64,000 nucleotides of DNA, taken from assembly GCA_963700145.1 (NCBI GenBank), contig OY969474.1:4352001-4416000 (forward strand), written 5' to 3'. The notes under the pieces were generated by a model. The model searched no databases and was not told the origin of the DNA. It worked only from the letters and a program-made list of their open reading frames with translations. Shown here piece after piece: positions 31,483 to 64,000 of the stretch. The translations under genes and the position numbers were made by a program. Numbering within the stretch: position 1 is the stretch's first letter; every line of letters starts with the position of its first letter. The stretch is from an uncultured Acidobacteriota bacterium (lineage in GTDB: Bacteria; Acidobacteriota; Thermoanaerobaculia; Multivoradales; UBA5704).

Positions 31483-31652
31483 CGTTGTGTCCCTTCTTTG
31501 GGGGAGACCTCTCAGTGTGGTCATCCTTCGTCAGGAGATCGTCAGCGTCGGCTCGCCAATCGGCCGCGATGGGGTTATCCTGGAAGGGCGACGCGAGGCG
31601 TCGAGTGAAACATGTGCAAACTGCTCTGTGTGTACGAGTTGGAGAGCTGCGC

Positions 31653-39534: not shown

Positions 39535-39609
39535 CAGCTCCTCGCTTGCGGCGTCGGGTTGAGGACGATCACACTATGCTCGGCGCCCATCGAAATGGTG
39601 GACGCATGC

Positions 39610-46241: not shown

Positions 46242-47440
46242 GCGGCCTCCGCGCGCCGCAGCGACGCGAACAGGGCCGCGACGCGCTCGTGGTACGTGGA
46301 CCAGCCGGCCCCGGCGACCGAGGTCCGGCAGCCCGGGCGCATGGCGCGCAGCGCCGGCCGGTTGCGGACGCACCAGAGCATCCGCTCGGCGAGTGCGCCG
46401 GCGTCGCCCGCCCGCACGACCCAGCCGTTGCGTCCCTCGACGACCAGCTCCTTGGCGCCCACGCGGTCCGAGACCAGCGCCGGCAGTCCGCTCGCCAGCG
46501 ACTCGGCGACGACCATCCCGAACGACTCGTTGCGGGAAGGGAGCACCAAACAGTCGGCCGAGCGGAAGCGGGCGGCCAGCTCGGCTTGGGGCAGCGATCC
46601 GAGAACCGAGACCCCGGAGGGCAGAGGAGAGAGAAGAGACGTGGCGTCGCCCGGGGGGCCGATAATCAGCAGGCGCACGGCGGGCTCCGCCTTCCTGGTC
46701 AGGGCGAAGGCCTCGAGCAGGACGTCGGTTCCCTTGAGCCGGCTCGCCGCGCCCGCGAACAGGAACGTGAAGTCGCTCGCGGCGCCGCCGCCCGGCTCGG
46801 CGCCTGCGTCCTCGAACAGCTCGAGGTCCACGCCCAGGGGCACGCAGTGCACCCGCTCCGGGGGAACGCCCGCCTCGACGTAGCTCTCCCGGGCCTGCGC
46901 CGAGACCGTCAGCACGTGGTCGGCGAGCGCCACCTCCAGGTCCTTCACCTGGCGGATGCGGCGACCCAGAGAGCGCGGCGTGGACTCGCCGGCGAAGCGG
47001 TCCTGGGTGCGGTGGTGCGTCGCCGGCGCGTCCAGGATCGTCGTCAGCCCGAGCCGCCGCGCGCGCCGGAAGGTCGCCAGCGCCGAGATCTCGCACGCCA
47101 CCACAGCATCCACCGCCTGGGGCCGGAGCCGCGCGGCGGCCCAACGATCGAACCGCCGGCAGGCGAGAAAGTCCGTGTAGGCGGCGAGCGGTGGCGGCAG
47201 CAGGAGGTCCCCCAGCCGGCGGAGGGCGGGAGCCCAGGGCGCCCACCGCACCCGATCCTCGGGCAGCGCCACCGGCCGATAGCGCACGAAGCGTTCCCAG
47301 AGAGGCCGCGGCACGTACCGGCGGTGCCGGTCGAGGCTGGGCACTCCCGCCCAGTAGCCGGCCAGCATGCCGGCCTTCGCCAGCGACAGCGCGATCTGGT
47401 GCGAGTGCTGGCGGCCCGGATGGGTGACCAGCACCTTCAT
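46238..47440 (-). CDS. Glycosyltransferase family 4
   Basis: MKVLVTHPGRQHS, PLGVD, KGTDVL, ESFGMVVAESLASG. Confidence 0.85.
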   Translation of the reverse strand: MKVLVTHPGRQHSHQIALSLAKAGMLAGYWAGVPSLDRHRRYVPRPLWERFVRYRPVALPEDRVRWAPWAPALRRLGDLLLPPPLAAYTDFLACRRFDRWAAARLRPQAVDAVVACEISALATFRRARRLGLTTILDAPATHHRTQDRFAGESTPRSLGRRIRQVKDLEVALADHVLTVSAQARESYVEAGVPPERVHCVPLGVDLELFEDAGAEPGGGAASDFTFLFAGAASRLKGTDVLLEAFALTRKAEPAVRLLIIGPPGDATSLLSPLPSGVSVLGSLPQAELAARFRSADCLVLPSRNESFGMVVAESLASGLPALVSDRVGAKELVVEGRNGWVVRAGDAGALAERMLWCVRNRPALRAMRPGCRTSVAGAGWSTYHERVAALFASLRRAEAA

Positions 47441-48864
47441 CCGCCGGTCCGCAGCCCGGCCCCCTGCGGCACCAGAGCCGCCCGTCGCGCCGCGGCGGCC
47501 GGCGCCGGTACCGGCGCCGGGACGAGAGCGGCCTGCCGGTCGAGCCGCACGGCCAGGAACACCAAACCCACGAGGAACCAGTAGTACACCCCGGCCGTCA
47601 CCTCGAAGATGATCCCGCCGGGGATCTGGATGAGGAAGAACAGCAAGGCCGAGATCGCGATGGCGCGATGGAAGGGCGTCCGTAGCCGCAGCGCCTGGCG
47701 CAGAGCGAAGAGCGCCACCGACAGGCGCACGAGATAGACGAAAAGGAAACCCAGTGGGCCGAGCTCCAGCATTACGCGGCCGCTCTCCGCCTCCGGCGCG
47801 ACGCCGCCGAGCCAACTGAAGGGCACGACGCCCCCGGTCAGCGCCGTCGCAGCCTGATGAGTCGCCCCGATGCCGTAGCCCAGGGCCCCGGCATAGGGGA
47901 GCATGTGGACCGGCGCCAGGAAGGGGGAGGCTACCCGGGAGGCGACGTCCTCGGATCCGGCGGCCCGCTGACTGAAGGCTGTGACTGCTTCTCCCCCCTT
48001 CCAACTGAGCACGGTCGCCAGCAGACCCATGCCGAGGAGCAATCGCACGAAAGTCCGAGCGCTCTGCCTCTCGCGTACCAGCGCGAGCCAACAGTAGATA
48101 GGGAAGATGAGGGAGAGCAGGAGGATCGGCCCACGCGAGCCGCTCATGAGCATCCCGAGCAACGTCATGCCGAGCGCGGCGTAGACGAGAAGATTCCCAC
48201 GGAATTGCCAGCGGGCGGTGGTGAGAATCGCGAGGATGAGGAACGTGCTGACGAGGAGGTAGGAAGTGTAGCCCGTGATGTAGGAAAAGGTCCCCGTGAC
48301 CCGGACGAACGCCGAGCTGCCGAAGGTCGAGATCACCGACACCTGCGGCGGTCGCGCGTAAGTGTTGAGGAGGCTGCCGGCCGGACTGAAGAACTGCGCG
48401 ATCGAGAGCAGCCCGATCGGCAGGGCGAGGAGCGCATAACGCTTGACGAAGCGGGCCAAGGACGCGTCGTCCGGGAACATCGCCGGTACGACGAAGAGAA
48501 GCGGCACGTACAGGAAATAGGCCTTGAACCCCAAGATCCCCACCCAGAGATTGGGCAACCGTGGGTTGAAGACCTGGAAGAGGCCGATGACCGCCGCGAG
48601 GATGAGGCCGGCGTAGAGGCTCGGCGCCTCCGGCAACCGCCACCGCAGGCGCCAGCGGTTCTGCAACCACCCGGCGTAGGCGCCGAGGAAGAAGACGTCC
48701 TTGGCGAAATAGACGATGTCTTGGGACCCGGGGAGGAGCCACTTCCGGATCGCCCCCTCGAGGATCACCAACAGCATCCCCACCTGGACGGCCTGCCGCC
48801 ACTGCCGCACCGACCAGAGGGCGGCGGCGACGCCGACCATCATCAGGAGCAGCCGCGTGTTCAC
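47437..48864 (-). CDS. Wzy-like polysaccharide polymerase / O-antigen ligase-like membrane protein
   Basis: EGAIRKW, RVTGTFS, SGSRG, GYGIG, ESGRVMLELG; many transmembrane helices. Confidence 0.7.
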   Translation of the reverse strand: MNTRLLLMMVGVAAALWSVRQWRQAVQVGMLLVILEGAIRKWLLPGSQDIVYFAKDVFFLGAYAGWLQNRWRLRWRLPEAPSLYAGLILAAVIGLFQVFNPRLPNLWVGILGFKAYFLYVPLLFVVPAMFPDDASLARFVKRYALLALPIGLLSIAQFFSPAGSLLNTYARPPQVSVISTFGSSAFVRVTGTFSYITGYTSYLLVSTFLILAILTTARWQFRGNLLVYAALGMTLLGMLMSGSRGPILLLSLIFPIYCWLALVRERQSARTFVRLLLGMGLLATVLSWKGGEAVTAFSQRAAGSEDVASRVASPFLAPVHMLPYAGALGYGIGATHQAATALTGGVVPFSWLGGVAPEAESGRVMLELGPLGFLFVYLVRLSVALFALRQALRLRTPFHRAIAISALLFFLIQIPGGIIFEVTAGVYYWFLVGLVFLAVRLDRQAALVPAPVPAPAAAARRAALVPQGAGLRTGG

Positions 48865-49916
48865 GCCTCGGCCTCCCCTCGTCCGGCGAGCAGCTCCGTC
48901 CGCCGCCCCGCGACGGCCTGCTCCAGCACTTGCAGATAGGCGGCGACGACGCGACCACTGCCGTGGCGGGCGAGGTGGTCGGACACTACCTCGCGCGGGG
49001 CGGCGAAGCGGTCCGTGTCCGCTAACGCGGCCTCCAGCAGGCGGGCGAGCGCGTTCGCATCGCCGTTCGCGAAGGTCAGGCCGCAGCGGCCGATGGCCTC
49101 CTTGAGGCCCCCGCCGCGGGAGCCGATGACGAGGCAACCGCAAGCGATCCCCTCCAGCGCGACGATGCCGAAGGGCTCGTTATAGCGCGAAGGGATCACG
49201 AGGATCCGATGCTCGTTCAAGAGGCGGACGACCTCTTCGCCCTCGCGGTTGCCCAGGAACACGAGCTGCGCCGCGACGCCGAGCCGGCTGGCCTGCGATT
49301 CGAGCGCCGGCCTCTCCGGACCGTCTCCCACGATCGTGAGTGTCGGTCGAATCCCACGGGTGGCCAAGAGGCCGAGGGCATCGAGCAGGGTATCGACCCC
49401 CTTGTCCGAGACGAGCCGGCCGAGGAACATCAGCTCGCCGCTGCGCGTCACCCCGGGCAGCATACGGAAGAGGTGGTCCCGATAAGAGTTGGCGATCACG
49501 ACCGAAAAGGTTTCGAGGTCGTCGGCCACCGCCTGGCTGACCGCGATCGAGCTAGCCCAGCGCAGAAGGAAGCGCTTGAGGCGGTCTTGGGGTGCGCGGC
49601 TCCCGTCCTGGCGGCTGTACCAACCGTGATGAGAGACGACCCAGGGCCGCCGCACCAGCAGCAGAGGCCACAAGCCGCGCAAGCTCACGTTGGCCTGAAA
49701 GAAGACGTCGCACCAGCGGGCGAGAGCCAGGAGCTCACGCCGCGAAGGTCGCCGCACGACGCGGAACTCGAAGGGCTCGGACCCCGGGTTCTCCGTCTTG
49801 GCGACGACTGTGACTTCGTGGCCCGCACGGTTGATACCCGCGGCCAGGCGTTGGATGTTGATCTCGAGCCCGCCGACGCTGGGGTAGAAAACAGGACAAT
49901 AGAGGAGGACTTTCAT
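48861..49916 (-). CDS. Glycosyltransferase family 4
   Basis: FYPSVGG, FLGRLVSDKG, EPFGIVALEGIACG. Confidence 0.87.
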   Translation of the reverse strand: MKVLLYCPVFYPSVGGLEINIQRLAAGINRAGHEVTVVAKTENPGSEPFEFRVVRRPSRRELLALARWCDVFFQANVSLRGLWPLLLVRRPWVVSHHGWYSRQDGSRAPQDRLKRFLLRWASSIAVSQAVADDLETFSVVIANSYRDHLFRMLPGVTRSGELMFLGRLVSDKGVDTLLDALGLLATRGIRPTLTIVGDGPERPALESQASRLGVAAQLVFLGNREGEEVVRLLNEHRILVIPSRYNEPFGIVALEGIACGCLVIGSRGGGLKEAIGRCGLTFANGDANALARLLEAALADTDRFAAPREVVSDHLARHGSGRVVAAYLQVLEQAVAGRRTELLAGRGEAEA

Positions 49917-49923
49917 AGCGCGT

Positions 49924-50952
49924 CTAACGGGGACTCACTTGCGGGAAGAGCAGCTTCAGGTAGGCGGCTGCGTGACGATCTAGAGAATGGCCGCGATACC
50001 AAGCATGGGCCTGATCCGCGATCGTCTGGAGATAGTTCCAGCGCACGGCGGTGCCCGACCGAGGCTTCCAGAACGGCGGAGTCGGCTCGGTGTTCGGCTC
50101 CGGTCGAGTCGAGGCGCAGACGGGCAGCAGACCGTGGGCGCAGTAGGCGGCAAAAGCCGTTGACTTGCCCAGGAAGGCAGACGGATAGGCGGCGAAGCCA
50201 GCGCACCCGTCGAGCAACCGTGCGCTGACCTCTCCTGGTGGAATCACACCCAACTCCCGCACCGGCAAGCCGTCCAGCCGGACCGGTGCTCCGGCCGGCG
50301 GGCCTACATCCCAGATCTCTGCAAGCTGTAGCGCGCGGCAGGTGGCTAGAAGATCTGCCCGCCTCTCTGTCCAGGCGCGTCCGCGGGCGCCGGAGCCGCC
50401 GAAGACGATGAGACGCCGGGGACGCTCAGCGAGCGGCCACACAGCCGCGGGCTCTCCGACGGTGGAGAACACCGGGGCCACGTCGATGTGTGCGTCGGGA
50501 CGCCAACGGCGGAGGATGCGAGCTTGCAACTCGAGACTGGTGACGGCGGCGTCGGACAGAGTGAGGAGACGCGACGCGAGCCGCCGCTGCTGCGGCCCGA
50601 GCCAGAATGAGCTGCGCCAAGGTGGCCCGCTGGCATAAAGCTCGTGGTAGACGGTCACGAGCCGACGCTCGGGGGCACTGCGTTTCCATCTCGCCAGTCC
50701 CTCGATCAGCCAGCCCGGGCATCCGCGGCGCTCATAGCCGTAGTTCGCGTAGTGGAGGAGAACGGTGGTCTCGTTAGCGAGGGCGGCGGCGAGGGCGGCT
50801 TTACTCTGTAGAAGCGTCGAGGCATCGAGGACTCGGGCCTCGAGCCGGGCCTTCTGGAAAAGCGCTGCGCCCAGCGCCAGAGCAAAGCTCCCTACCCCCT
50901 CCTCCGGAGGAGGCAGGTGCGGCACCACCTGGAGAGCTCCGGTCGCCGTCAC
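49924..50952 (-). CDS. Glycosyltransferase (GT-B, GT4-like)
   Basis: EGVGSFA, YGYERRGCP, HELYA, PVFSTVGE, GKSTAFAAYCAHG; GTGA-coupled start. Confidence 0.7.
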   Translation of the reverse strand: MTATGALQVVPHLPPPEEGVGSFALALGAALFQKARLEARVLDASTLLQSKAALAAALANETTVLLHYANYGYERRGCPGWLIEGLARWKRSAPERRLVTVYHELYASGPPWRSSFWLGPQQRRLASRLLTLSDAAVTSLELQARILRRWRPDAHIDVAPVFSTVGEPAAVWPLAERPRRLIVFGGSGARGRAWTERRADLLATCRALQLAEIWDVGPPAGAPVRLDGLPVRELGVIPPGEVSARLLDGCAGFAAYPSAFLGKSTAFAAYCAHGLLPVCASTRPEPNTEPTPPFWKPRSGTAVRWNYLQTIADQAHAWYRGHSLDRHAAAYLKLLFPQVSPR

Positions 50953-52112
50953 AGCCGGGCCTCCTGCAGCCATTCTAAAGGCGCCCCTCCACCCGCGGCG
51001 GCTCGCTCGATCAGCTCCGCCCAAGCGGGAGCCAGGCGCTCCCAGGCATGTCGCTCGGCAACCTCGCGGGCGCGTTCGCCAAGCGCAGCCGCGAGTGCGG
51101 GGTCAGCGAGCAGACGCTTGACGGCGCACGCCAGCGCCGTCGCGTCGCACGGTGGTACGAAGAGGACGCTCTCGCCATCGCGCAGCAGGTCCGGCGCCGC
51201 ACCGACCGGTGTCGTCACGATGGGCAGTGCAGCCGCCATCGCCTCGAGTAGCGCGACACTCGATCCCTCGGCAAGAGTTGGAAAAACGAAGAGGTCGGCC
51301 GCCCGCAGCTCCTCCACCACGCGCTCTCGTCCCACCGAGGCGACCACGGCCACGCGACTTCGGATCGCCTCGGGAAATGAGGCGAGCACTGCCTCGGGCT
51401 GCTTCTGCGTTCCGACGCAGACGAGCTCCAATTCCGGACACTCGGCTGCGAGTGCGGTGAAGGCCTCGACCAAGTACCGCACGCCCTTCCCGTCTAACCA
51501 CTGACCGAGAAAGAGCAGGCGCCGCAGTGAGAGGCGGCCGGACCGCTTCACAAACGCCTCGGAGGGCGCGGCGTTACGGACAACGACGACTTTCTCCGGG
51601 GATCCCCAGCCGCGCGCTAGAAGCGCCGCCCGCTCCCTCGTGTTCAGGCAGGCGATCAGCTCCGACCGGCGGCAGGCCAAGCGGAGGAGAAGCGGCATCA
51701 CGCTCTCTTGGAACAGCCGGAAGCGGAAGCGGAACGGCTGGCCGATGCGTGCCATTTCCGTTCGCATGGCCCGATAGTGGAGGGGCTCCAGCCCATGGAA
51801 CTGGGTAATTGCGCGCATACCGGCGAGGCGCGGGTCGAAGCGCCGCGCGAGAAGCGCCGCCCAGCCGGAGAAGGAGTGAAAGACGACTAGGTCCGGCCGC
51901 TCCCCGGCGCGCCTAAGGCTCCGCGCCACGGCGAGCGGGAAGAGGATCGGCCGCCAGCGGAACGCCTTTCCGGCGAGAGTAGGACAGTCCTCAGGTGCCA
52001 GCACCTCGGTTCGGTGGCCGCGCGATTCCAGGAATTCCGCGCGCTGGCGCGTCCAAGCGTAGACGGCTGTGCGTGGATCCTTGGATGTGTGAATCACGAA
52101 CAGGACTTTCAT
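50949..52112 (-). CDS. Glycosyltransferase family 4
   Basis: FLGQWLDGKG, ADLFVFPT, EGSSVALLEAMAA. Confidence 0.85.
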   Translation of the reverse strand: MKVLFVIHTSKDPRTAVYAWTRQRAEFLESRGHRTEVLAPEDCPTLAGKAFRWRPILFPLAVARSLRRAGERPDLVVFHSFSGWAALLARRFDPRLAGMRAITQFHGLEPLHYRAMRTEMARIGQPFRFRFRLFQESVMPLLLRLACRRSELIACLNTRERAALLARGWGSPEKVVVVRNAAPSEAFVKRSGRLSLRRLLFLGQWLDGKGVRYLVEAFTALAAECPELELVCVGTQKQPEAVLASFPEAIRSRVAVVASVGRERVVEELRAADLFVFPTLAEGSSVALLEAMAAALPIVTTPVGAAPDLLRDGESVLFVPPCDATALACAVKRLLADPALAAALGERAREVAERHAWERLAPAWAELIERAAAGGGAPLEWLQEARL

Positions 52113-53188
52113 CGCGCGCCCCTGATCGGGACTGCCGCCTCGTAGGCCTCCGCGATCCGCGCCCAATGGAAGCGCCGGTAATAACCGTTCAGGTCAGAAG
52201 CTGCTCGTGCAAGGTAAGGTTCTGCCGGGGGTGGAAAAGGACGCAGCGTGTCGGGGAATGCCGGCCGAAGGTCGGGGACACCCCCAGCCTCCGTTGCGAA
52301 GACCGTCATGCCCGACTCGAGCATTTCGTTGAGCGACAGACCCCAGCCCTCGACGTCGCTGGTGAAGACGCCGGCGTCGTGGCTGGCGAGAAGGGGCGAC
52401 AGTTGTTCGCGGCCGAAGGACTCGACGATGCGAATGCGGCCTGTGGCGAGGAGCTCGCGTGGTAGATCGTGCGCTGCGCCTACGCCGCAGCCGGCGACAG
52501 TGAACGTGTCGCGTGGCGCGAGCGCGGCGCGCTCTGTAATCCAGGCGACCAGGCGGCGAGTCCCCTTTTGTGGGACCCAACGGCCGATCCAAAGGAAACG
52601 AACGCTGGCACCGCCTGGCGTCGGGCGCCCCGCGCGCACGGCGGCAAGCGTCGCCTGCTCCTCCTGGGCGAGAGCATTGACGTAGAGATCGAGCCGCGAG
52701 CGTGTCCAAGGAAAGTTGGCGCGCATCCACTCCAGCTCGAGAGTGCCGAGGCAGAGAATCAGGCGAGCGCGCCGCCAACCGGCGAGGATCGCCCCGCACA
52801 CCGCGAGGTCGGCTGCGGTGTGAGCGGCGCCTCTGAGTGCGCCCCGCGGTAGATGGCGAACCTGTTCTGCCACTGCGTGGCCGAAGTAGCGAAGATCCGG
52901 CTGCACGCTACGAGCGATTGCCGGCGCAGCGGCCGCCACTCGGCGAGAGAGCGAAACGGCCGGCAAATCGATGGCGTCGAAGCGCGAGGCAGCGGCCAGA
53001 TATTCCTCCAAGCGCCTCCTCTGCCAGCGCCAGCGGTTCCACCATCGGGTTTCCCGGGGAAGGGGCTCGGGACTCCAGGTCACCACGTCGTGGCCGCGGG
53101 CGCGAAGCGCCGCGGCGAGGTTCAAGGCCATCTGCGCTGCACCGTACTCCGGAGAGAGGGGCGGGTGGGTGACGACGAGGAGCCTCAC
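52109..53188 (-). CDS. Glycosyltransferase family 4
   Basis: WIGRWVPQKG, EGWGLSLNEMLESG. Confidence 0.8.
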   Translation of the reverse strand: MRLLVVTHPPLSPEYGAAQMALNLAAALRARGHDVVTWSPEPLPRETRWWNRWRWQRRRLEEYLAAASRFDAIDLPAVSLSRRVAAAAPAIARSVQPDLRYFGHAVAEQVRHLPRGALRGAAHTAADLAVCGAILAGWRRARLILCLGTLELEWMRANFPWTRSRLDLYVNALAQEEQATLAAVRAGRPTPGGASVRFLWIGRWVPQKGTRRLVAWITERAALAPRDTFTVAGCGVGAAHDLPRELLATGRIRIVESFGREQLSPLLASHDAGVFTSDVEGWGLSLNEMLESGMTVFATEAGGVPDLRPAFPDTLRPFPPPAEPYLARAASDLNGYYRRFHWARIAEAYEAAVPIRGAR

Positions 53189-54261
53189 GTCGTCTCCTTG
53201 CCGTTGGCGTTGAAGCTCTCGTAGGCGTCGAAGCAGCGTTCAACAACCCGGTTCCAGGTGAATTCGTCTTCTACGCGCATGCGCGCGCCCTGCGCGAGGC
53301 GGCGCCAGAGGTTTGCGTCGGAAGCAAGGCGGGAGAGCGCAGCGGAGATGGCCGCTGGGGCGTTCGGCGGCACCAGCAAGCCGCTCGTTTCGTGCTCGAC
53401 GATCTCAGGAAGCGAGGCGACGTTGGACACTACCGCCGGGCAGCCGCAAGCCATTGCCTCGACAAGGGCGAGGCCGAAAAGCTCGTGAGACCCGGCGTCA
53501 CCGTTGGAGGTGGTTGGTGTGGGATGGACGAGGGCCATCGCTCGCTGGAGATACGACAGCACCTCCCCGTCGGCGAGGCCGAGGTGGAAGCGAACATCTT
53601 TGCCCTCGGCGAGGGTTTTCAGGCGTGTCAGGTAGGCCGCGTCGGGTGCCGAGCCGAGGAGGTGGAGCGTCACACCCGCGGGCAAAGCCTCGATCAGCAG
53701 GTGCACGCCCTTGTGGGCCAGGAGGCGGCCCAGAAACAGCAGCGACCCATCGTGCGCGAGCTCAGACCGCATCGGATAGCGCTTCAGGTCGACGCCGCCG
53801 TAGATCACCCGGTGGCGCCGGTGGCGTCCTGGGAGGGCACGAGCCGCGTAGCGCGAGATCGGCAGATGCGCCGCGATCCAACGCGATTGGTCGATCTGAT
53901 AGCCGGGAGTCCAGCTGCCGCCGCCGAGGTCGGAGACGAAGACGCGGCTGCCGCGCAGCCTGCCGGCGAGGGCGGCGAGGAAGGTGGGGAGGACGAAGTA
54001 CTGATGGCAATGGATGACGTCGGCACCGGCCAGCTCGCGGAAGAGCGCGGCCGAGATCGGCGCGCGCGACCAGCTCTTCAGGATCACCCGCTCGTAGTGC
54101 GGCGCCGGGCGTTCGCGGAAAGCGCGCCGGCCGAAGCTCACGAGCTTGACCTCGGCGCGCGCAGCCATTGCGCGCGACAGCTCCTCGGCGAAGCGCTCGC
54201 CGCCGCCGAGGATCGACTCCGGGGCGAAATAGGTCGGGCTCACGTGGCAGACGCGGAGCAC
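53185..54261 (-). CDS. Glycosyltransferase family 4
   Basis: GGGERFA, GGVD, FLGRLLAHKG, ELFGLALVEAMACG. Confidence 0.85.
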   Translation of the reverse strand: MLRVCHVSPTYFAPESILGGGERFAEELSRAMAARAEVKLVSFGRRAFRERPAPHYERVILKSWSRAPISAALFRELAGADVIHCHQYFVLPTFLAALAGRLRGSRVFVSDLGGGSWTPGYQIDQSRWIAAHLPISRYAARALPGRHRRHRVIYGGVDLKRYPMRSELAHDGSLLFLGRLLAHKGVHLLIEALPAGVTLHLLGSAPDAAYLTRLKTLAEGKDVRFHLGLADGEVLSYLQRAMALVHPTPTTSNGDAGSHELFGLALVEAMACGCPAVVSNVASLPEIVEHETSGLLVPPNAPAAISAALSRLASDANLWRRLAQGARMRVEDEFTWNRVVERCFDAYESFNANGKETT

Positions 54262-54266
54262 GCCGG

Positions 54267-54863
54267 CTAACCTTCCCGGCCGACCTTGACGGCCCGCAGC
54301 TTGAAGATCAGGAACCACGCGGGATAGAGCCAGGCGAAGCGTTGCTCGTAGCGGGCCGGTTGCCGATTCGCCCAGCGCGCGACCAGCCGATCGAGCACGC
54401 CGTTGTGAAAGGCGATCAGGCGCTCCTCGATCGTGAATCGCGCGGGCGAGTAGAAGCTCCACGGCGAGGCGTCGTCGGCGAAGTAGTCGAACGAGAAGTA
54501 GCCGAAGTGGTGCTTGTGGGTGGGGTCGGTGAAGGCGTTGGGGCTCGAGAAGTGGGGCGTGGTGATCTCGAGGACCCCTCCCGGAGCGAGCAGCGCGTGG
54601 ATCTCTTCCATGAAGGCCGGGATGTCGTCGAGGTGCTCGACGACGTCGCCGGCGTAGACCCGTTCGAAGTGGTACCGCGGCAGCGGGTAGGGGTGGACGT
54701 TCAGGTCCCACACCAGGTCCGGCGCGACCGCCGGCCGGAGGTCCACGTTGAGGCAGTGCGCACGCTTCTGCCGCCCGCACCCGAGGTTGAGCTCGGGCGG
54801 GACGTCGCGCTCGCCCACCGCGGCCGGCGCCGGCCGCTCGGCCGGCTCGACGCTCAGGCCCAT
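54267..54863 (-). CDS. SAM-dependent methyltransferase (type 11-like)
   Basis: LNLGCG, LNVD, DVVEHL, DPTH. Confidence 0.82.
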   Translation of the reverse strand: MGLSVEPAERPAPAAVGERDVPPELNLGCGRQKRAHCLNVDLRPAVAPDLVWDLNVHPYPLPRYHFERVYAGDVVEHLDDIPAFMEEIHALLAPGGVLEITTPHFSSPNAFTDPTHKHHFGYFSFDYFADDASPWSFYSPARFTIEERLIAFHNGVLDRLVARWANRQPARYEQRFAWLYPAWFLIFKLRAVKVGREG

Positions 54864-57989: not shown

Positions 57990-59144
57990 TCAGGCGGCCC
58001 CGGTGAGGAGTTCGAGGTGCGGCGCCAGGCGCTCGCGGAAGCGCTCGGCGGTGAAGTCGCGGAGGAAGCGGCGCCGGCCGGCCTCGCCGAGTCGCTGCGC
58101 CAGGTCCGGCTCGGCGAGGAGGCGCGCCAGCGCCGCGGCCAGCTCCGCCGTGTCGTCCGCGGCGACGAGGAAGCCGGTCTCGCCGTCGACGACCACCTCT
58201 TCAGCGGCGCCGCCGCGCGCCGCGACGCAGGGCTTGCCGGCGCGCATCGCTTCCAGGTAGACGAGCCCGAACCCCTCGCCGCGGCTGGGCATGGCGAAGA
58301 CCGCGCAGCGGCGGTACAGCTCGGCGAGCGTCGCCTCGCCGACGAAGCCGGTGAAGGTCACCCGCTCGCCCAGCCCCAGCGCCGCGGCGCGCGCCTCGAG
58401 TCGCGGCCGGTCCGCGCCCTCGCCGGCGACGACGAGGCGGGCGCCGGGGACCGCGGCGAGGGCGGCCAGCAACTCGTCGTGCCCCTTGTAGCGCTCGCGC
58501 GGGTCCATCCGCCCGACGATCAGGACGTACCCCTCGCCGAGCCGTGCCGCAAGCGCGCGGTCGACGGGTCCGGCCGGCGCGCGGTCGGAAAGCGCCAGCG
58601 GCACGACCCGCGCCCGCTCGAGGCCGGGGCAGAAGGGGCGGGCGCGCTCGAGGGTGTGGCGCGAGATGGCCAGCACGGCCGTGGCGCCGCGGACGGCGCG
58701 GGCGCGGTCCCAGGAGAGACGGCGCCAGGCCTCGATGCCGAGGAGGACGAGGAGGTAGGGGGCGCGCAGCGGTGCCGGCAGGACCGCCTGGAGGCGGGCC
58801 GGGCCGAGGAGGTCGAAGACGTAGGCCTCGTGGCGGCGGCGGAGCTGGCCGCGCCAGGCGGCGCCGGCCAGCGCCAGGGGGCGGCCGGCGAAGCCGCGGG
58901 AGGGCGTCCCGGGGGGCCCTTCGCCGCGTAGCGCCAGCACCCGGAAGCCGGTGCCTTGCTGCCGCGCGAAGGCGGCGCAGGCGTCGGCCAGGAGGCGCCC
59001 GGCCGCGGCCCGCCCGCCGCCGTCGGGCTCGAGGCCGGCCGAGACCAAGACCAGGTCGCGGCGGCGGGGCGCGGAGACGGACCAGGGCACCGTCGATGCG
59101 GGTTCGGGATGCGGCACGATGCGGGACGTCGAAGCCGTGGTCAA
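57990..59144 (-). CDS. Glycosyltransferase family 4
   Basis: VGRMDPRERYKGHD, EGFGLVYLEAM; start uncertain. Confidence 0.85.
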   Translation of the reverse strand: MTTASTSRIVPHPEPASTVPWSVSAPRRRDLVLVSAGLEPDGGGRAAAGRLLADACAAFARQQGTGFRVLALRGEGPPGTPSRGFAGRPLALAGAAWRGQLRRRHEAYVFDLLGPARLQAVLPAPLRAPYLLVLLGIEAWRRLSWDRARAVRGATAVLAISRHTLERARPFCPGLERARVVPLALSDRAPAGPVDRALAARLGEGYVLIVGRMDPRERYKGHDELLAALAAVPGARLVVAGEGADRPRLEARAAALGLGERVTFTGFVGEATLAELYRRCAVFAMPSRGEGFGLVYLEAMRAGKPCVAARGGAAEEVVVDGETGFLVAADDTAELAAALARLLAEPDLAQRLGEAGRRRFLRDFTAERFRERLAPHLELLTGAA

Positions 59145-59237
59145 CTTCTAGGCGGACAAGGAGTTCGGGGACGCGGCGGATTCTCGCAGAAGTGGCGCGA
59201 GGAAGCAATCCGGCGAGCGGCCTGGCGGCCGCGCGCG

Positions 59238-60587
59238 TCAGTCCTGCGCGACGAAGGCGGGGGTCGCGGCCTCGGGGCCGGCGGCGGCACGGCGGGAAGC
59301 CTCGCGCAGCAGCTCCAGGGCGGCGTGGCCGTCGTGCGCGATGCGGGCGAGCTGGGAGAGCGAAGCGAGCAGCTCGCGGCCCCAACCGAGGGACTGGAAG
59401 ATGGGGATCGCCTCGCTCACCAGGCGCACCGCGCCGGCGACGCTGCCCAGGCCCAGGCAGACGGTCGCCAGGTCGAGCGAGATCACGGCCGATTCCATGG
59501 CCAGGCCGCGCGCCAGGAAACCTTCGCGGACCGCCTGCAGGTGCGCCTCGGCCGCGGCGAGCTCGCCCAGCTCGCGGTCGATCAGGCCGCGCGTCCAGCG
59601 CCAGCGCAGGAGGGCCAGCGCGTCGTCGGAGGCGGCGAAGAGCGGCGCCCCCTCGCGCCACAGGGCGTCGGCCCGCTCGGGCTGCCCGAGGTCGGTGTAG
59701 CAGCGGACCAGGTTGATGGTCGCCGCCTGCATCAGGTCCAGGTGCTGCGCGGGGTCGAGCACTTCGAGGCAGGGGCGGAGGGAGCGGACCGCCCCTTCCG
59801 GGTCGCCGGCGGCGATCTGGATGATGCTCTGCGTGATCAGCGTCGCCGCCTCTTCGACCGGGTCCCCGAGGTCGCGGTAGATGGCGGCGGCCCGCTGCAG
59901 CAGCTCGAACGCCTCCTGGAACTGGCGCCGGAGGCGGCGCAACGAGGCGAGCTGGCGGTAGAGCCTGGCCCGCAGGACCTGGTCGCCGCTCCCTTCGTCG
60001 AGGTGATGGCAGGCGACCGCGAAGGCGTCCTCGGCCTCGAGCGGCTCGCTGCGCACCCGGTGCGCGGTCCCGAGCTGCGACCAGGCGCGGGCGAGGTAGT
60101 CGTTGAGCTGCGCCTGCCGCTCGCGGCCGATGCCGCCCGCCCGGGCTGCGGCGGCCTCCGCGGCGGCGACCGCGAGGCGGGCGTAGGCCAGCATCTCGTC
60201 CGCGTCGCGCCAGCGGGCCTGGTGGCTGCGCTCGACGAACGCCGCCGAAAGGTCGGTCGAGGCGAAGGCCGGATCGTTGCGCACCTGCTCCTCCCGCTCG
60301 GCGGCCGGCAGCGCGTCCACCCGCTCGACGAGGGCACGGTGCTCACCGTGCCGGCGGGCCAGCTCGCGCAGCGCCGCGGCTTCGGCGCGCGCGAAAGCGC
60401 GGTCGTACGCGTTCTCCGCGGGGGCCTCCGCGCCGAAGCCCCAGACGTGCCGCCGGAACCAGGTGCGGCAGACCTCGCACTCGTCGACCAGGTGGCGCAG
60501 GACGTCGCGCCGTTCCTCGGGGGTCGTGCGGCCGGCGGCGAAGCGCCTGAGGACCGTCGGGGGGAGCACGTGCGGCTGGTCCGGCAT
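59238..60587 (-). CDS. TPR-like helical repeat protein with N-terminal zinc-finger (ZAS-like) motif
   Basis: H6-x25-H32-x4-C37-x2-C40 (RHLVDECEVC); helical repeats such as LARAWSQLGTAHRV and LASLRRLRRQFQEAFELL; no transmembrane segment seen. Confidence 0.75.
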   Translation of the reverse strand: MPDQPHVLPPTVLRRFAAGRTTPEERRDVLRHLVDECEVCRTWFRRHVWGFGAEAPAENAYDRAFARAEAAALRELARRHGEHRALVERVDALPAAEREEQVRNDPAFASTDLSAAFVERSHQARWRDADEMLAYARLAVAAAEAAAARAGGIGRERQAQLNDYLARAWSQLGTAHRVRSEPLEAEDAFAVACHHLDEGSGDQVLRARLYRQLASLRRLRRQFQEAFELLQRAAAIYRDLGDPVEEAATLITQSIIQIAAGDPEGAVRSLRPCLEVLDPAQHLDLMQAATINLVRCYTDLGQPERADALWREGAPLFAASDDALALLRWRWTRGLIDRELGELAAAEAHLQAVREGFLARGLAMESAVISLDLATVCLGLGSVAGAVRLVSEAIPIFQSLGWGRELLASLSQLARIAHDGHAALELLREASRRAAAGPEAATPAFVAQD

Positions 60588-60602
60588 GACGGCGGGCGCT
60601 TC

Positions 60603-60857
60603 CTACGTCACGCAGCGCACGGGGTTGCCGAACGGATCGAGACAGTTGCCTTCCGTCGGGCGCGGCGGCGGCGACCCCAGGCCGTCGCGGCCGAACCAGG
60701 CCGTCACCCGGCTCAGCCAGCCGGAGAGCCGCTCGATCGTCGCGAGCGAGAAGGGATCGACGCGCGGGTGGAGGGGCAGGGCGGCGAGAGGGGGAGCGAC
60801 GGCCAGGGCGACGGTCAGGGTGAATGCTGCCAGGAGGAGGCCGCGGCGAGCTCGCAT
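60603..60857 (-). CDS. Small secreted peptide (84 aa) with C-terminal GNCLDPFGNPVRC motif
   Basis: SD AAGGA before the ATG; Sec-type signal MRARRGLLLAAFTLTVALAVAPPLAA; Trp-containing amphipathic helix; two Cys; stop lies 15 nt before the TPR gene. Confidence 0.7.
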   Translation of the reverse strand: MRARRGLLLAAFTLTVALAVAPPLAALPLHPRVDPFSLATIERLSGWLSRVTAWFGRDGLGSPPPRPTEGNCLDPFGNPVRCVT

Positions 60858-60947
60858 CGGAGTTCCTTCTTCCGGCCGCGAGACTCGACGTCATGTCGGG
60901 GTCTTGCCGGAACTGCACAGGGAACGATGCAGAAAGCGCGCCAGCGA

Positions 60948-62675
60948 TTAAGGCAGGGCGCCGACGAAGCCGGCCCGCTCGAGGTAGAGCAGGATCTCCT
61001 GCGCCGCCTCCTCCGGGGTGGCCTCGGAGGCGTCGATCGACAGCTCGGCGTCGAGGGGCGGCTCGTAGGGGTCGGAGATGCCGGTGAACTCGGGGATGAG
61101 CCCGGCCCGCGCCTTGGCGTAGAGGCCCTTGCGGTCGCGCTCCTCGCAGACGGCGAGGGGCGTCGCCACGTGCACCAGCACGAACCCGCCGCCCGGCTCG
61201 ACCATCCGCCGCACCTCCTTGCGCACCGCATCGTAGGGGGCGATCGGGGCGCAGAGCGCGATGCCGCCGTTCTTGGTGATCTCGGAGGCGACGAAGCCGA
61301 TGCGGCGGATGTTGATGTCGCGGTGGGCCTTCGAGAAGGTGAGCTCGGAGGAGAGGTGCTTGCGCACGATGTCGCCGTCGAGGAGGGTGACCGGCCGGCC
61401 GCCCATCTCCAGGAGCTTGACCAGCAGCACGCCGGCGATCGTCGACTTGCCGGCGCCCGAGAGGCCGGTCAGGAAGACGGTGAAGCCCTGCCGGTGGCGC
61501 GGCGGGTGGGTGCGGCGCAGCTCGGCCGCCACCTCGGGGTAGGTGAACCAGGCCGGGATCTCCCGCCCTTCGGCGAGGCGCGAGCGGAGGTCGGTGCCGG
61601 AAATTGTCAGGGTGCGGGCACCCTGCGGCACTTGGTCCTCCGGCAGGTAGGAGTCCGAGTCCTCGACGTAGACCAGGTTCTGGAAGGGCACCATCTCGAC
61701 CCCCAGCTCGGCCTCGTGCGCGCGCAGCATCTGCTGTGCGTCGTAGGGGCCGTAGAAGGGGCGCCCGCGCGAGTCGTTGCCGGGGCCGGCGTGGTCACGG
61801 CCGACGATGAAGTGGGTGCAGCCGAAGTTCTTGCGCACGATGGCGTGGAAGAGGGCCTCGCGCGGCCCGGCCATGCGCATCGACAGCGGCAGCAGGGCGA
61901 GCATCGCCGTCTGCCGCGGGAAGCGCTCGAGCACCGCCTGGTAGCAGCGCACGCGGGTGTAATGGTCGAGGTCGCCCGGCTTGGTCATGCCGACGACCGG
62001 ATGGATGAGGAGGTTGGCCTGCGCCTGCTTGGCGGCGGCGAGCGCCAGCTCGCAGTGCGCGCGGTGCATCGGGTTGCGGGTCTGGAAGGCGACCACCCGG
62101 CGCCAACCGCGGCGGGTGAGCTCCTCGCGCACCTCGGCCGGGGTGAGGCGCAGGGAGCGGAAGTCGTAGTGGGCGGGGAGCTGGATGCCTTCGAGCCGGC
62201 CGGCGACGGCCAGCCACCCCTCGCGCTCGTAGAGGTCGGCGACGCCGGGATGCTTGCGGTCGGTGGTGCCGAAGACCGCCTCGGCGACGGGCTCGCGCTC
62301 GCGCTCCCAGGTCTCCTCGACGGTGAGCGCCGCGAGCATGACGCCTTCGGCGTCGCGCAGCGCCAGCGCCGCGCCGGGGCGGAGCCGCGCCCCCAGCTCC
62401 GGCGGCACTTCCAGCGCCACCGGCAAGGGCCAGAGCGTGCCGTCCGCCAAGCGCATTCGCTCGCAGACCGCGTCGTGGTCGGCGCGCCCGAGGAAGCCGG
62501 TGAGCGGCGAGAAGGCGCCGGAGAGGAGCAGCTCGAGGTCGCACTGTTGGCGCGCCGTCAGGTCCCAGGAGGGCCAGTCGCGCGAGGCGGCCTTGAGCTC
62601 CGCCGCCCGTTCGGGCGCGGCGAGCAGGTCGAGCAGACGACCGCCGTGCGGCTCGATCAGGTGGTCGATGGACGT
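60948..62675 (-). CDS. sat: Bifunctional sulfate adenylyltransferase / adenylylsulfate kinase
   Basis: HLIEPHGG, DLELLLSGAFSPLTGF, FQTRNPMHRAH, VGRDHAG; APS kinase GLSGAGKST, LLDGD, DPYEPP; the frame extends 73 codons beyond the first ATG (62456) and the start codon is non-canonical. Confidence 0.9.
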   Translation of the reverse strand, partial: TSIDHLIEPHGGRLLDLLAAPERAAELKAASRDWPSWDLTARQQCDLELLLSGAFSPLTGFLGRADHDAVCERMRLADGTLWPLPVALEVPPELGARLRPGAALALRDAEGVMLAALTVEETWEREREPVAEAVFGTTDRKHPGVADLYEREGWLAVAGRLEGIQLPAHYDFRSLRLTPAEVREELTRRGWRRVVAFQTRNPMHRAHCELALAAAKQAQANLLIHPVVGMTKPGDLDHYTRVRCYQAVLERFPRQTAMLALLPLSMRMAGPREALFHAIVRKNFGCTHFIVGRDHAGPGNDSRGRPFYGPYDAQQMLRAHEAELGVEMVPFQNLVYVEDSDSYLPEDQVPQGARTLTISGTDLRSRLAEGREIPAWFTYPEVAAELRRTHPPRHRQGFTVFLTGLSGAGKSTIAGVLLVKLLEMGGRPVTLLDGDIVRKHLSSELTFSKAHRDINIRRIGFVASEITKNGGIALCAPIAPYDAVRKEVRRMVEPGGGFVLVHVATPLAVCEERDRKGLYAKARAGLIPEFTGISDPYEPPLDAELSIDASEATPEEAAQEILLYLERAGFVGALP

Positions 62676-62697: not shown

Positions 62698-63321
62698 TTA
62701 CGGTCGGGAAGGCGACGGCTCGTCGTCGATGATCAGGATGCCGGTGATCGGCACGGCCGCCAGTGCGGTCGGCAGCTTCCACCAGGCGACCACGCAGGCG
62801 CGGCAGAACTCGTCGGCGCGCCGGATCCCCTGAAAGTTGACGCGCGTGACGATGCCGTCGCAGAGGAAGCCCAGCACCGGCTTGTGGCCCTGCTGCTGCG
62901 CGATGGTCTCGCCGACCGTCAGGTTGCTGGCCACGCCCTCTTCCCGCTCCGCCAGGCGCACCGGACAGTTGCCGTTGACTTTCGCCCTGCGCACGGCGCT
63001 CTTCGCCACCTCCGTGCCCGCGGCGTCGACGAGGGCGGCGTAGTACTCCACCTCCTCGTTGCGCCGTTCCGGCCGCGGGAAGACGCCCCAGTAGCGGCCG
63101 CCTCCCGCGGGCTCCAGCTCCACCCAGTAGGTCTCGCCGTGGTCGCGCCATTTGAAGTAGAGGCGCGGGGACTCGCCGGCGGGCTCGTTGGTGGCGGTCG
63201 CCTTGACGAGAGCGTTGTCGCCCACGGGGATGCACTGCAGCTGCTCGATCTCGATCGTCTGGGCGTGGATGGCGGTCGCTGCGAGGAGCGCCGCGCCGGC
63301 TGCGATGAGGATCCGCTTCAT
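62698..63321 (-). CDS. Secreted hypothetical protein with C-terminal hydrophobic segment
   Basis: SD GGAG; signal MKRILIAAGAALLAATAIHA; EVEYY Ig-like strand; 5 Cys; ends LAAVPITGILII-DDEPSPSRP. Confidence 0.72.
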   Translation of the reverse strand: MKRILIAAGAALLAATAIHAQTIEIEQLQCIPVGDNALVKATATNEPAGESPRLYFKWRDHGETYWVELEPAGGGRYWGVFPRPERRNEEVEYYAALVDAAGTEVAKSAVRRAKVNGNCPVRLAEREEGVASNLTVGETIAQQQGHKPVLGFLCDGIVTRVNFQGIRRADEFCRACVVAWWKLPTALAAVPITGILIIDDEPSPSRP

Positions 63322-63374
63322 GGCCACAATCTCCCGAAAGGGTGCTTCCACATTAGGCGGAAGCCGTTCTCCTG

Positions 63375-64000
63375 TCAACGTCCGCCGGTGCCGCCGCTGG
63401 TCCGCGAGCGCAGGATGCGCTTCGCGTACGCGTCGACGTACGGCGTGCGTTCGAGGTTGGGAAGCGAACGTTCGAGGGCGCTGGCGGCGGCCTCCCTCTC
63501 CCCTGATTCGTAGAGCGCCACCGCGAGGTAGAAGAGCAGCTCGGGGCGCGCGTCGCCGGGGTCGCCGCCGCGCTTGAAGTACGAAGCGGCATCCTGCCAG
63601 CGGGCGGAGCGGTAGGCGGCCTCGGCGGCCAAGTGCTGCGCCTCGCGCGAGCCCGGATTGGCGTCGGCCAGCTCGCGGGCGAGGGTGAGCCCCTGGCGCA
63701 ATTCGTCCTGGACGCCGGTCGCGAGGAGGCGCCGCACCCGGTCGAGGCCCTCGGCGAGGGGGACCTGCGGCGCCGGCGCGGCGGTCGGCTTCGCGGGGGC
63801 GGCGGTCGTCTCGCGCGGGTTGACCGGCGGCTGCCTGGCGCCGGCCGGGGTCCGCGCCGCGGCAGCCGGCGGCCGCCCCGCCGGCGGTGTCGCCGCCGTC
63901 GCCTGCGCCGCGGCGAGGCCCTTCTGAACCCGCTGCGCGAGCCCCGCGATCTGGCGTTCGCGCGCCACCTCCGGGGGTAGAGCGCGCACCAGCTCGTCGG
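63375..64000 (-). CDS. C-terminal part of a TPR-containing protein (partial)
   Basis: Frame open to the window edge; Pro/Ala linker then TPR motifs (AEAAYRSARWQDAASYF; LFYLAVALYESGEREAAASAL). Confidence 0.7.
   Translation of the reverse strand, partial: DELVRALPPEVARERQIAGLAQRVQKGLAAAQATAATPPAGRPPAAAARTPAGARQPPVNPRETTAAPAKPTAAPAPQVPLAEGLDRVRRLLATGVQDELRQGLTLARELADANPGSREAQHLAAEAAYRSARWQDAASYFKRGGDPGDARPELLFYLAVALYESGEREAAASALERSLPNLERTPYVDAYAKRILRSRTSGGTGGR

Follow-up and report, generated by a model that had tools for sequence, protein, structure and literature searches.

Genetically encoded peptide signals read by cytoplasmic receptors are textbook Gram-positive biology, whereas Gram-negative quorum sensing is usually taught as a matter of small-molecule chemistry. 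The two adjacent genes described here may encode a peptide signal and its receptor, a type of system not known to date outside Gram-positive bacteria. They lie on the minus strand of a 64,000-nucleotide (nt) stretch, hereafter the window, from an uncultured acidobacterium of the class Thermoanaerobaculia (contig OY969474.1, positions 4,352,001 to 4,416,000). The first encodes an exported pro-peptide of 84 amino acids (aa), and the second a soluble protein of 449 aa, in which a zinc-binding anti-sigma (ZAS) domain precedes tetratricopeptide repeats (TPRs). The pair is best explained as one copy of a lineage-specific signaling cassette, present in about a dozen copies in this soil acidobacterium. 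That the cassette is real, that its two genes are functionally tied, and that the receptor descends from an anti-sigma factor is, taken jointly, very likely.

Relation to Described Systems

RRNPP systems (Rap-Phr, NprR-NprX, PlcR-PapR, and AimR-AimP) are close in layout. As in the window pair, a small Sec-type propeptide, conserved in its C-terminal part, is encoded beside a cytoplasmic receptor consisting of an N-terminal effector domain and then a TPR-type sensor, and one genome holds many diverging paralogous cassettes. Rap proteins are also among the best fold matches of the ZAS-TPR protein. Unlike these systems, the window pair belongs to a diderm acidobacterium with relatives in Thermoanaerobaculia, and its output is a zinc anti-sigma domain instead of a helix-turn-helix (HTH) or the Rap three-helix bundle. 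Its peptides share a fixed DPxG core, in many cases within a Cys-closed loop, as well as an amphipathic helix, and its receptor shows no sequence homology to known RRNPP receptor families in Pfam and NCBIfam. The RRNPP-analogous system proposed in a first-pass annotation of this DNA is partly supported, as regards the layout (adjacent Sec-type propeptide, cytoplasmic TPR receptor, N-terminal effector). To our knowledge, no RRNPP member has an anti-sigma effector domain. In the available part of the RRNPP_Detector paper (PMC10075063), RRNPP systems are those of Firmicutes and their mobile elements.

On the side of the output, ChrR of the ChrR/sigma-E system of Cereibacter sphaeroides (PDB 2Q1Z and 2Z2S) is likewise soluble, with an N-terminal anti-sigma domain and a C-terminal sensor domain. 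ZAS factors in general (ChrR, RslA 3HUG, RsiW 5WUQ, and DdvA 8RLZ) have their H..H-x-C-x2-C ligands at matching positions, and some members of the ZAS-TPR family directly follow a gene for an extracytoplasmic function (ECF) sigma factor. In contrast to these factors, the ZAS-TPR sensor is a TPR superhelix of about 350 residues, not a cupin or periplasmic domain, the window copy has H-x4-C instead of H-x3-C and no adjacent sigma gene, and the dedicated exported-peptide gene beside it has no counterpart there. In the DegS/RseA/sigma-E envelope-stress pathway of Escherichia coli, a short C-terminal peptide motif of exported proteins acts as the signal through which an ECF sigma factor is finally freed from its anti-sigma factor; there a PDZ protease senses the motif in the periplasm and the anti-sigma factor is membrane-spanning, whereas the ZAS-TPR anti-sigma factor is cytoplasmic with a TPR domain as sensor. 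The available part of an ECF classification (PMC7826278) describes TPRs that serve ECF sigma control, either on the sigma factor itself or on a FecR-like anti-sigma factor, and counts soluble anti-sigma factors in 10 groups, none of them mentioned there with a peptide partner. A search of the full-text literature, with most subscription journals outside it, returned no description of an exported peptide that is paired with an anti-sigma/TPR protein, nor any work on signaling in Thermoanaerobaculia.

Gene Pair and Encoded Proteins

The two genes and their parts, with the basis of each assignment, are as follows.

60603–60857 (stop codon included), minus strand: gene for an exported pro-peptide of the DPxG peptide family, 84 aa (open reading frame (ORF), family profile match, orthologs)
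60777–60857, minus strand: predicted Sec signal peptide, residues 1–27 (MRARRG, hydrophobic core, ..PLAA/LP) (sequence, hydrophobicity)
60693–60728, minus strand: amphipathic Trp helix segment LSGWLSRVTAWF, residues 44–55 (sequence, family alignment)
60606–60653, minus strand: C-terminal motif EGNCLDPFGNPVRCVT, residues 69–84 (sequence, family alignment)
59238–60587, minus strand: gene for a soluble ZAS-like anti-sigma/TPR protein, 449 aa (ORF, homologs, model)
60312–60587, minus strand: class-I anti-sigma domain, residues 1–92 (PDB profile matches, zf-HC2, AlphaFold2 models)
59268–60305, minus strand: TPR superhelix, residues ~95–440, ~16 helices, presumed sensor (TPR_12, AlphaFold2, Foldseek)

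The sequence AAGGA lies 6 nt 5' of the small ATG, and AGGAAG, 10 nt 5' of the large ATG, overlaps the small stop codon; the gap between the two ORFs is 15 nt (GAAGCGCCCGCCGTC). At its N-terminus, the small protein carries a basic n-region (MRARRG), followed by a hydrophobic h-region with a 15-aa Kyte-Doolittle mean of 2.52, compared with at most 0.43 outside it; the cleavage site PLAA/LP was placed by reading the sequence. Further on, C72 and C82 flank the loop C-L-D-P-F-G-N-P-V-R-C. The Shine-Dalgarno sequence, signal peptide, Trp helix, and C-terminal two-Cys motif that had been assigned to the 84-aa ORF were all found at their places. No Pfam or NCBIfam family was matched by the small protein, and an ESM Atlas search with it returned only ‘hypothetical protein’ clusters. 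Among assembled contigs of soil metatranscriptome libraries, one of 281 nt (X1, 10 differences) spans 60619–60897, and two (X2) span 59871–60050 and 60276–60488; such contigs give no transcript ends and may stem from DNA carry-over, so that they do not establish transcription.

The large protein has neither a signal peptide nor a membrane helix; its most hydrophobic 19-aa stretch (1.75, residue 367) is within a confidently modeled TPR helix. The zinc-ligand candidates H6, H32, C37, and C40 form the pattern H-x25-H-x4-C-x2-C and are invariant in 14 paralogs with 25–45% overall identity. Among 59 family N-termini, H6 is at least 90% conserved, and it aligns with the His at the start of ChrR. The canonical H-x3-C-x2-C is absent from the window protein and all 14 aligned paralogs, which have x4 instead; a further paralog, L025, has x3, and family members elsewhere carry either form. 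A profile of the 59 N-termini (A4) matched ChrR (6e-8), DdvA (1.3e-5), and RslA (7e-4) among PDB sequences, and the ChrR alignment covers residues 4–96, with the four zinc ligands aligned and a one-residue gap before the first Cys. Pfam zf-HC2 (PF13490) is matched by 15 of the 59 N-termini, with a best E of 1.6e-5. In the AlphaFold2 models, with predicted local distance difference test (pLDDT) values of 88.9 for the whole protein and 87.1 for the N-terminus alone, the N-terminal helices comprise residues 10–17, 23–34, 38–47/49, and 60–92. A wide VIA-align search with this domain placed RslA, RsiW, and MucA at ranks 1–3 of 48,161 chains, with Z-scores of 4.3–4.5 and root-mean-square deviations of 2.0–2.2 Å over 43–46 residues. 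A Foldseek search of the N-terminal model against the PDB gave no match at E ≤0.001 (RsiW, E 5.5; ChrR, E 8.8). Collectively, we conclude from these results that the large protein begins with a class-I anti-sigma domain whose ZAS motif carries a one-residue insertion, and the profile and zf-HC2 matches of its family bear out the earlier description of H-x25-H-x4-C-x2-C as a ZAS variant.

Pfam matched only TPR families in the large protein (TPR_12, E 4.4e-13) and NCBIfam nothing specific; partial matches to the TPR regions of AfsR, HaaT, and NsdA were far below the cut-offs of these databases. The soluble helical-repeat protein of the first-pass annotation is thus confirmed by the missing signal peptide, the TPR_12 match, and the modeled superhelix. 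Foldseek ranked LGN/Pins best for the TPR domain, with Rap receptors next in rank, pheromone-bound phage Rap among them (E 1.6e-6 to 2e-4, template modeling score ~0.5). The comparison with Rap, PlcR, and NprR that had been suggested yields Rap among the top fold matches, but LGN/Pins rank higher. LGN/Pins proteins wrap extended peptides, and the modeled likeness to LGN/Pins and Rap fits a peptide-binding TPR domain, although it is not specific to RRNPP. Two distant homologs (P0023 and P0024) carry the same TPR module behind an XRE-type HTH, and an XRE-type HTH joined to TPRs is the architecture of PlcR-type receptors. A complex prediction with peptide residues 30–84 and the full 449-aa protein gave a score of 0.00, run with no controls, and speaks neither for nor against binding.

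Cassette Copies in the Genome

The source genome is a single contig of 5.46 Mb with 71.5% G+C. A search of it with the large protein gave 21 matches, and the 15 covering most of the query were kept; L020, L022, L023, L024, L026, and L027 were dropped as fragments or unrelated long proteins. All kept paralogs except L025 (H-x3-C-x2-C) share an N-terminal HP...H-L-x-x-[G/E]-C-x-x-C, and 12 of these 14 are preceded on the same strand by an ORF of 62–109 aa with a signal peptide, a C-terminal [I/L/V/M]-D-[P/G]-x-G unit, and usually a Trp-rich amphipathic helix. This ORF ends 15–132 nt before the ZAS-TPR gene, or 639 and 655 nt before it in the two copies with an ECF sigma gene between. A thirteenth copy (L015) has VDPY-R without a stop at the motif, and the paralog L021 has no peptide gene upstream. 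The 12 clear copies served to build a profile, which was searched against every open frame of at least 40 aa in the genome (59,536 in total); it returned the 12 training copies and the untrained L015 (E 2e-6), with nothing further at E <0.005. There is therefore no lone peptide-family gene in this genome, and all 13 adjoin one of the 14 ZAS-TPR paralogs, two with an ECF sigma gene between, an association beyond chance.

The L015 peptide gene (G000:C1:4274656 onward, plus strand) reads ...GGGVDPY-R and continues into the receptor gene in another frame; in L018, its closest paralog, the peptide ends with ..DPYG. A one-base frameshift or a decaying copy is probable, although L015 could also have a real extension. 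L025 (G000:C1:334900–336246, minus strand) is divergent from cassette L018, and their shared spacer holds the L018 peptide gene.

Genes for XRE-type HTH proteins of ~145 aa recur beside cassettes L008, L009, L010, L016, and L017, one type convergent with the ZAS-TPR gene and a second divergent from the peptide gene (G000:C1, minus strand: 3385901–3386344, 3888067–3888516, 3399048–3399710, and 3396682–3397164; plus strand: 3108163–3108609, 3199529–3201121, and 3203045–3203476). These proteins may be a second output or a local repressor; the window cassette has no XRE-HTH gene beside it. A Mutator-family transposase gene (L125 3486–4775, plus strand) lies within ~2 kb of cassette L019, and a gene for an M14 zinc carboxypeptidase with an fn3 domain (L117 275–2386, minus strand) ~2.5 kb from the L009 peptide gene. 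The genome also has an SBP_bac_5 (OppA-type) gene, ~3 kb away from module L014 and without linkage to the cassettes. Inspection by eye, without a motif program, of 13 own and 7 other upstream regions showed no convincing shared –35/–10 of a common ECF-type promoter; local upstream similarity is limited to recent paralogs (e.g., GGCG-A/T-TTTACG in L013, L016, and L017).

Distribution and Linkage in Related Genomes

Homologs with a name are ‘tetratricopeptide repeat protein’ of metagenome-assembled genomes of Thermoanaerobaculia (Acidobacteriota), and a single-protein search for related loci gave two in genome contigs and one in metagenome contigs. Some homologs are 55–58% identical to the window protein, including that of G160. 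Of 151 genomes sampled from the class, 89 contain the ZAS-TPR family, a tally that includes two unpublished genomes (G004 and G135) used for no other result, and several genomes have at least 11 copies each. In more distant families of the class, homologs carry the canonical H-x3-C-x2-C, and at two of the loci read they directly follow the 3' end of a sigma gene. The peptide family is narrower, with all matches below E 2e-5 in six of the 151 genomes (G000, G041, G065, G097, G133, and G125), which belong to the host's own family (f1) and two neighboring families of the same order. There are 12–28 peptide matches in each of G041, G065, G097, and G133 and one in G125. With 14–15 ZAS-TPR copies in the host genome and these peptide counts in its relatives, the statement in the first-pass annotation that expanded paralog families occur in Thermoanaerobaculia proved accurate.

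The linkage of the two genes likewise extends beyond this genome. Among 69 ZAS-TPR genes of 12 other genomes, 35 have a profile-detected peptide gene ending within 700 nt upstream on the same strand, 3 others are the second receptor gene of a peptide-TPR-TPR array, and 5 others follow motif-bearing signal-peptide ORFs found by regular expression only. An ECF sigma gene ends within ~210 nt upstream in 14 of the 69, and the recurrent arrangements are peptide-TPR, peptide-sigma-TPR, and sigma-TPR. Within the subfamily nearest the window protein, 32 of 64 matches have a peptide gene and none has a sigma gene, in a sample where many loci are cut by locus ends. Conversely, in stretches of ~3.7 kb, 6 of 10 independently found peptide genes adjoin a ZAS-TPR gene (3 on the same strand, 2 convergent, and 1 divergent). 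At L059, L072, L077, L132, L133, and other loci, one peptide gene is followed by two tandem ZAS-TPR paralogs, and some genomes have arrays of three such genes (e.g., G218:C112 and G221:C2).

Conserved Motif and Divergence of the Peptides

Sequence conservation supports the small ORF as a genuine member of a conserved family of exported proteins. In an alignment of 43 peptides (A3) with a mean column identity of 18%, D74, P75, and G77 (window numbering) are at least 90% conserved, the start Met and A26 in the signal-peptide region are also near-invariant, and the Trp-rich helix recurs at the corresponding position. The conserved unit, x-x-[I/L/M/V]-D-P-x-G, is short and C-terminal. Among 85 distinct peptides, it is present in 81 and occurs in 2–4 copies in 15; the precursor ends exactly at the motif G in 9, and Cys residues flank the last motif on both sides in 47. 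The x of DPxG is N, D, Q, L, W, M, or others, and this position and the loop interior vary from paralog to paralog. Multi-unit precursors include 4 × RSAMIDPNG and 6 × AGAGLDPNG. Repeats inside one precursor share 3.2 of 6 variable positions, compared with 1.7 between precursors, a similarity that would equally result from recent internal duplication.

The peptide profile matched 3,615 cluster representatives at E ≤0.001 among 1.84 billion proteins, 135 of them at E ≤1e-10. Public proteins of 640–730 aa consist of dozens of DPxG-type units, and a Pfam search gave no family for such poly-repeat proteins or for the multi-unit precursors; one of 731 aa (P0033) matched only G020 among 401 genomes of the phylum. 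P0033, P0083, P0101, and P0114 are secreted proteins with ~20 to dozens of tandem nonapeptides, x-S-x-x-I-D-P-[N/D]-G, and a secreted protein with ~20 units is encoded in G020:C7 (L160 1264–1863, minus strand), convergent with a ZAS-TPR family gene. These poly-repeat proteins could be poly-precursors or a structural repeat.

Of four genomes of the genus, two were found to have a true ortholog of the window copy, with 95% identity in G157 and 57% in G160; the remaining relatives are at most 47% identical and belong to other paralog groups. The small ORF is thus conserved, both in these orthologs and in the family matches. The peptide is 86% identical in G157, where residues 68–79 (TEGNCLDPFGNP) are unchanged and the helix region is altered, including W54 to R. 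The amphipathic Trp helix noted earlier therefore holds as an element that recurs across the family, but not in each of its Trp residues. Against the G157 ortholog, the pN/pS ratio is 0.83 for the peptide gene (14 non-synonymous and 7 synonymous differences) and 0.27 for the ZAS-TPR gene. The loop reads CLDPFGNPVRC in the window, CLDPFGNPMRC in G157, and CTDPDGHRVPC in G160, and thus evolves along with the receptor.

Sigma Factors

The genome has 34 Sigma70_r2 matches. An ECF sigma gene directly precedes the ZAS-TPR gene in two of the own copies, and such genes often form a peptide-sigma-ZAS-TPR operon. The cassette-associated ECF subgroup consists of four sigma factors: two in L012 and L013, one divergent from L019, and one without an anti-sigma neighbor. 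Their genome positions are 796772–797341, ~799140–799700, 2755285–2755905, and ~4071194. Therefore, about 11 ZAS-TPR proteins, including that of the window, lack a sigma gene within their own cassette; these proteins may share the few sigma factors as targets or have another output. The fourth subgroup sigma gene (G000:C1 ~4071194, plus strand; L159 ~6195–6377) has neither an anti-sigma nor a peptide gene beside it, and its product is a candidate for a target shared by the sigma-less ZAS-TPR proteins.

Polysaccharide Locus and Promoter

The window pair is accompanied on the same strand by the following features.

60928–60943, minus strand: sigma-54-type promoter candidate TGGCGCGCTTTCTGCA with GG-N10-GC spacing (pattern match, kept in G160)
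60948–62456, minus strand: bifunctional ATP sulfurylase/adenosine 5'-phosphosulfate (APS) kinase, Sat/CysC, for synthesis of 3'-phosphoadenosine 5'-phosphosulfate (PAPS) (Pfam ATP-sulfurylase 2e-88, APS_kinase 5.5e-57)
34857–59144, minus strand: co-directional polysaccharide genes (Pfam)

The last of these encode GT1/GT4-type and GT2 glycosyltransferases, FkbM and other methyltransferases, a carbamoyltransferase, an AsnB-type amidotransferase, and an epimerase, in a glycosyltransferase and modification run of ~24 kb that ends at ~34860. Its GT1 glycosyltransferase gene starts 93 nt past the stop of the large ORF. Upstream on the minus strand, past the window end, are genes for a Wza-type exporter, a Wzc-type chain-length/tyrosine-kinase protein, and a CpsB-type phosphatase, so that the order is export genes, two unknown proteins, Sat/CysC, peptide, ZAS-TPR, and the ~24-kb glycosyltransferase run. 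Because of this gene order, the pair is placed inside a Wzx/Wzy-type polysaccharide locus, whose product is plausibly a sulfated polymer. The first-pass annotation had the pair directly upstream of an exopolysaccharide operon. The claimed gap of less than 100 nt on the same strand is accurate, whereas the claimed position has to be corrected, with export and PAPS genes upstream of the pair and glycosyltransferases downstream. The position between the Sat/CysC gene and the first GT1 gene is kept in G157 and G160, and in G160 the order is Wzc, unknown, Sat/CysC, CysQ, peptide, ZAS-TPR, and GT1. The two unknown proteins of the window (62701–63378 and 63378–63989, both minus strand) match no Pfam family; one has a signal peptide and the other a TPR-like C-terminus. 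At the corresponding place, G160 has a 236-aa protein without a Pfam family.

The promoter candidate TGGCGCGCTTTCTGCA is located ~70–85 nt upstream of the peptide start codon, in a 90-nt spacer. It is the sole match to TGGCRCNNNNNYTGCW in the window, where 0.45 are expected by chance, and a single sigma-54-like match is by itself not significant, since 37 of 100 shuffles contained at least one. G160 keeps TGGCGCGGTTCTTGC at the corresponding place before the peptide gene, in a spacer that is otherwise different, and G157 keeps the sigma-54-like site as well. The genome contains rpoN and 17 activator-domain matches, none of them within the window, and simple scans of 58800–61400 for sigma-70 promoters and terminators found none. 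This copy is probably transcribed from a sigma-54 promoter. As a feature of the whole family, the sigma-54-like site was rejected: of 81 distinct upstream regions, the only 2 that contain it come from this ortholog group, and the reverse-complement control likewise gave 2 of 81; it is specific to the ortholog group of this copy.

A SARP/AfsR-like regulator with Trans_reg_C, BTAD, and AAA_16 domains is encoded at 31485–33782 on the plus strand, just past the polysaccharide cluster at its distal end. Within ~37800–54300 (minus strand), most glycosyltransferase ORFs fail a third-position G+C filter (≥0.84) that nearly all other genes of the window pass, and this section of the cluster may be of foreign origin.

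Functional Interpretation

The reading that we favor, tentatively and by analogy with RRNPP systems, is that the exported peptide is sensed by the cytoplasmic anti-sigma/TPR receptor. The small Sec-type pro-peptide would be exported and trimmed, would accumulate outside the cell, and would then re-enter it. Bound in the TPR groove of its own receptor, it would alter the hold of the N-terminal anti-sigma domain on an ECF sigma factor of the small dedicated subgroup, which for the window copy would be encoded elsewhere in the genome. The logic would be that of RRNPP peptide signaling, except that an anti-sigma domain provides the output. We infer every one of these steps, from export and processing through re-import and binding to the sigma partner and an effect on polysaccharide. 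In favor of this reading are the genetic linkage of the two genes, the descent of the partner from an anti-sigma factor, the peptide-binding type of its TPR domain, the resemblance of the peptide to a pro-signal, and the conserved setting of the window copy. From the placement in the Wza/Wzc-type locus and the probable sigma-54 promoter, it follows that the window cassette would likely couple polysaccharide production to the peptide signal. The full picture of a true peptide-pheromone system in a Gram-negative-type phylum, with at least a dozen private channels per genome, ECF sigma release, and a sulfated exopolysaccharide dependent on the signal, is somewhat doubtful.

Several observations weigh against a peptide signal sensed in this way. 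The organism is a diderm, and a re-entering peptide must therefore cross two membranes; the cassettes have no linked importer, protease, or outer-membrane component, and the cytoplasm would reduce a disulfide loop that had formed outside the cell. Overall, the peptide is weakly constrained, to judge from its pN/pS and the loss of W54 in G157, and a helix conserved across the family is not expected in a mere pro-region. The tandem xxxxIDPxG proteins of ~20 to dozens of units could be structural repeats and not precursors, and 4 of the 10 independently found peptide genes have no ZAS-TPR gene within the ~3 kb covered. As for the output, four subgroup sigma factors stand against 14–15 ZAS-TPR proteins, and there is no sigma gene near the window copy, the nearest Sigma70_r2 match being weak and ~39 kb away. 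By itself, the window N-terminus misses Pfam zf-HC2, and every Z-score for this small domain is below 5, which is low, though consistent with the sequence result.

In the first of the alternatives, which we consider rather unlikely, the peptide is the output. The soluble ZAS-TPR protein would sense a cytoplasmic cue through its TPR domain, and the small exported protein, encoded at the head of the operon under its control, could have an effector role in the periplasm or at the surface, as a membrane-active amphipathic helix, as a turn motif that binds calcium or matrix, or, in the window copy, as part of the polysaccharide matrix itself. Autoregulation is common among ECF operons, and the peptide gene is indeed first in its operon, including the peptide-sigma-ZAS-TPR units. 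A conserved amphipathic helix, the existence of long secreted proteins made of dozens of IDPxG nonapeptides, and the position of the window copy among envelope-polymer genes also suit an effector. However, such a role does not explain why each of 13 small, fast-diverging proteins has a private regulator paralog, with no orphan peptide in this genome, or why the adjacency survives changes of orientation. Nor does it explain that many peptides end at the motif or repeat it with the same flanks.

It is also possible, but improbable, that the TPR domain binds its cognate precursor before export and that export frees or re-sets the anti-sigma factor, a logic known from FlgM/sigma-28 and from type III secretion TPR chaperones that double as co-regulators. 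Such a switch would account for the same linkage evidence as a sensed external peptide and needs no re-import across two membranes. Furthermore, the genes are 15 nt apart and the stop codon of the first overlaps a ribosome-binding site, so that the two proteins would be synthesized together. Yet Sec substrates are quickly exported, the conserved element is far C-terminal and not in or near the signal peptide, and multi-copy units fit released peptides better than a chaperoned client.

Equally low in our estimate is the chance that the ZAS-like domain of the sigma-less copies, including that of the window, has lost sigma binding and that the protein acts through another partner, such as an XRE-HTH protein, or as a scaffold for the polysaccharide machinery, an explanation that overlaps with the other readings. 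The XRE-HTH genes adjoining L008, L009, L010, L016, and L017, the small number of subgroup sigma factors relative to ZAS-TPR proteins, and the x4 instead of x3 spacing before the first Cys would be in line with such a loss. On the other hand, the four zinc ligands are invariant in all 14 paralogs, the sigma-less ones included, which argues for a retained fold; no HTH gene adjoins the window copy, and the subgroup sigma factor near 4,071,194, without an adjacent anti-sigma gene, could be a shared target. Finally, that the small ORF is a chance frame with accidental neighbors is extremely unlikely: despite the many overlapping spurious ORFs of a 71.5% G+C genome, the lack of a Pfam or NCBIfam family, and the pN/pS of 0.83, the motif is kept in 43 sequences whose mean column identity is 18%, every one of the 13 peptide genes adjoins a ZAS-TPR paralog, 3,615 public cluster representatives match the profile, and the 57% ortholog in G160 keeps the architecture.

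Implications for the Family

Even if the peptide is no signal, the DPxG unit is an uncatalogued motif that ranges from single copies to poly-repeat proteins. To the cassette family, the window copy adds a conserved placement in a polysaccharide locus and a sigma-54-type promoter; it is especially useful, as its conserved synteny offers a visible phenotype, matrix production, together with a defined promoter. If the proposed function holds, ECF sigma regulation would gain both a new input, a peptide ligand, and a new sensor domain, the TPR. With its thousands of exported peptides, each beside a soluble anti-sigma/TPR protein, in the abundant, little-studied soil Acidobacteriota, the family would then break the division between peptide signaling in Gram-positive bacteria and small-molecule signaling in Gram-negative bacteria.

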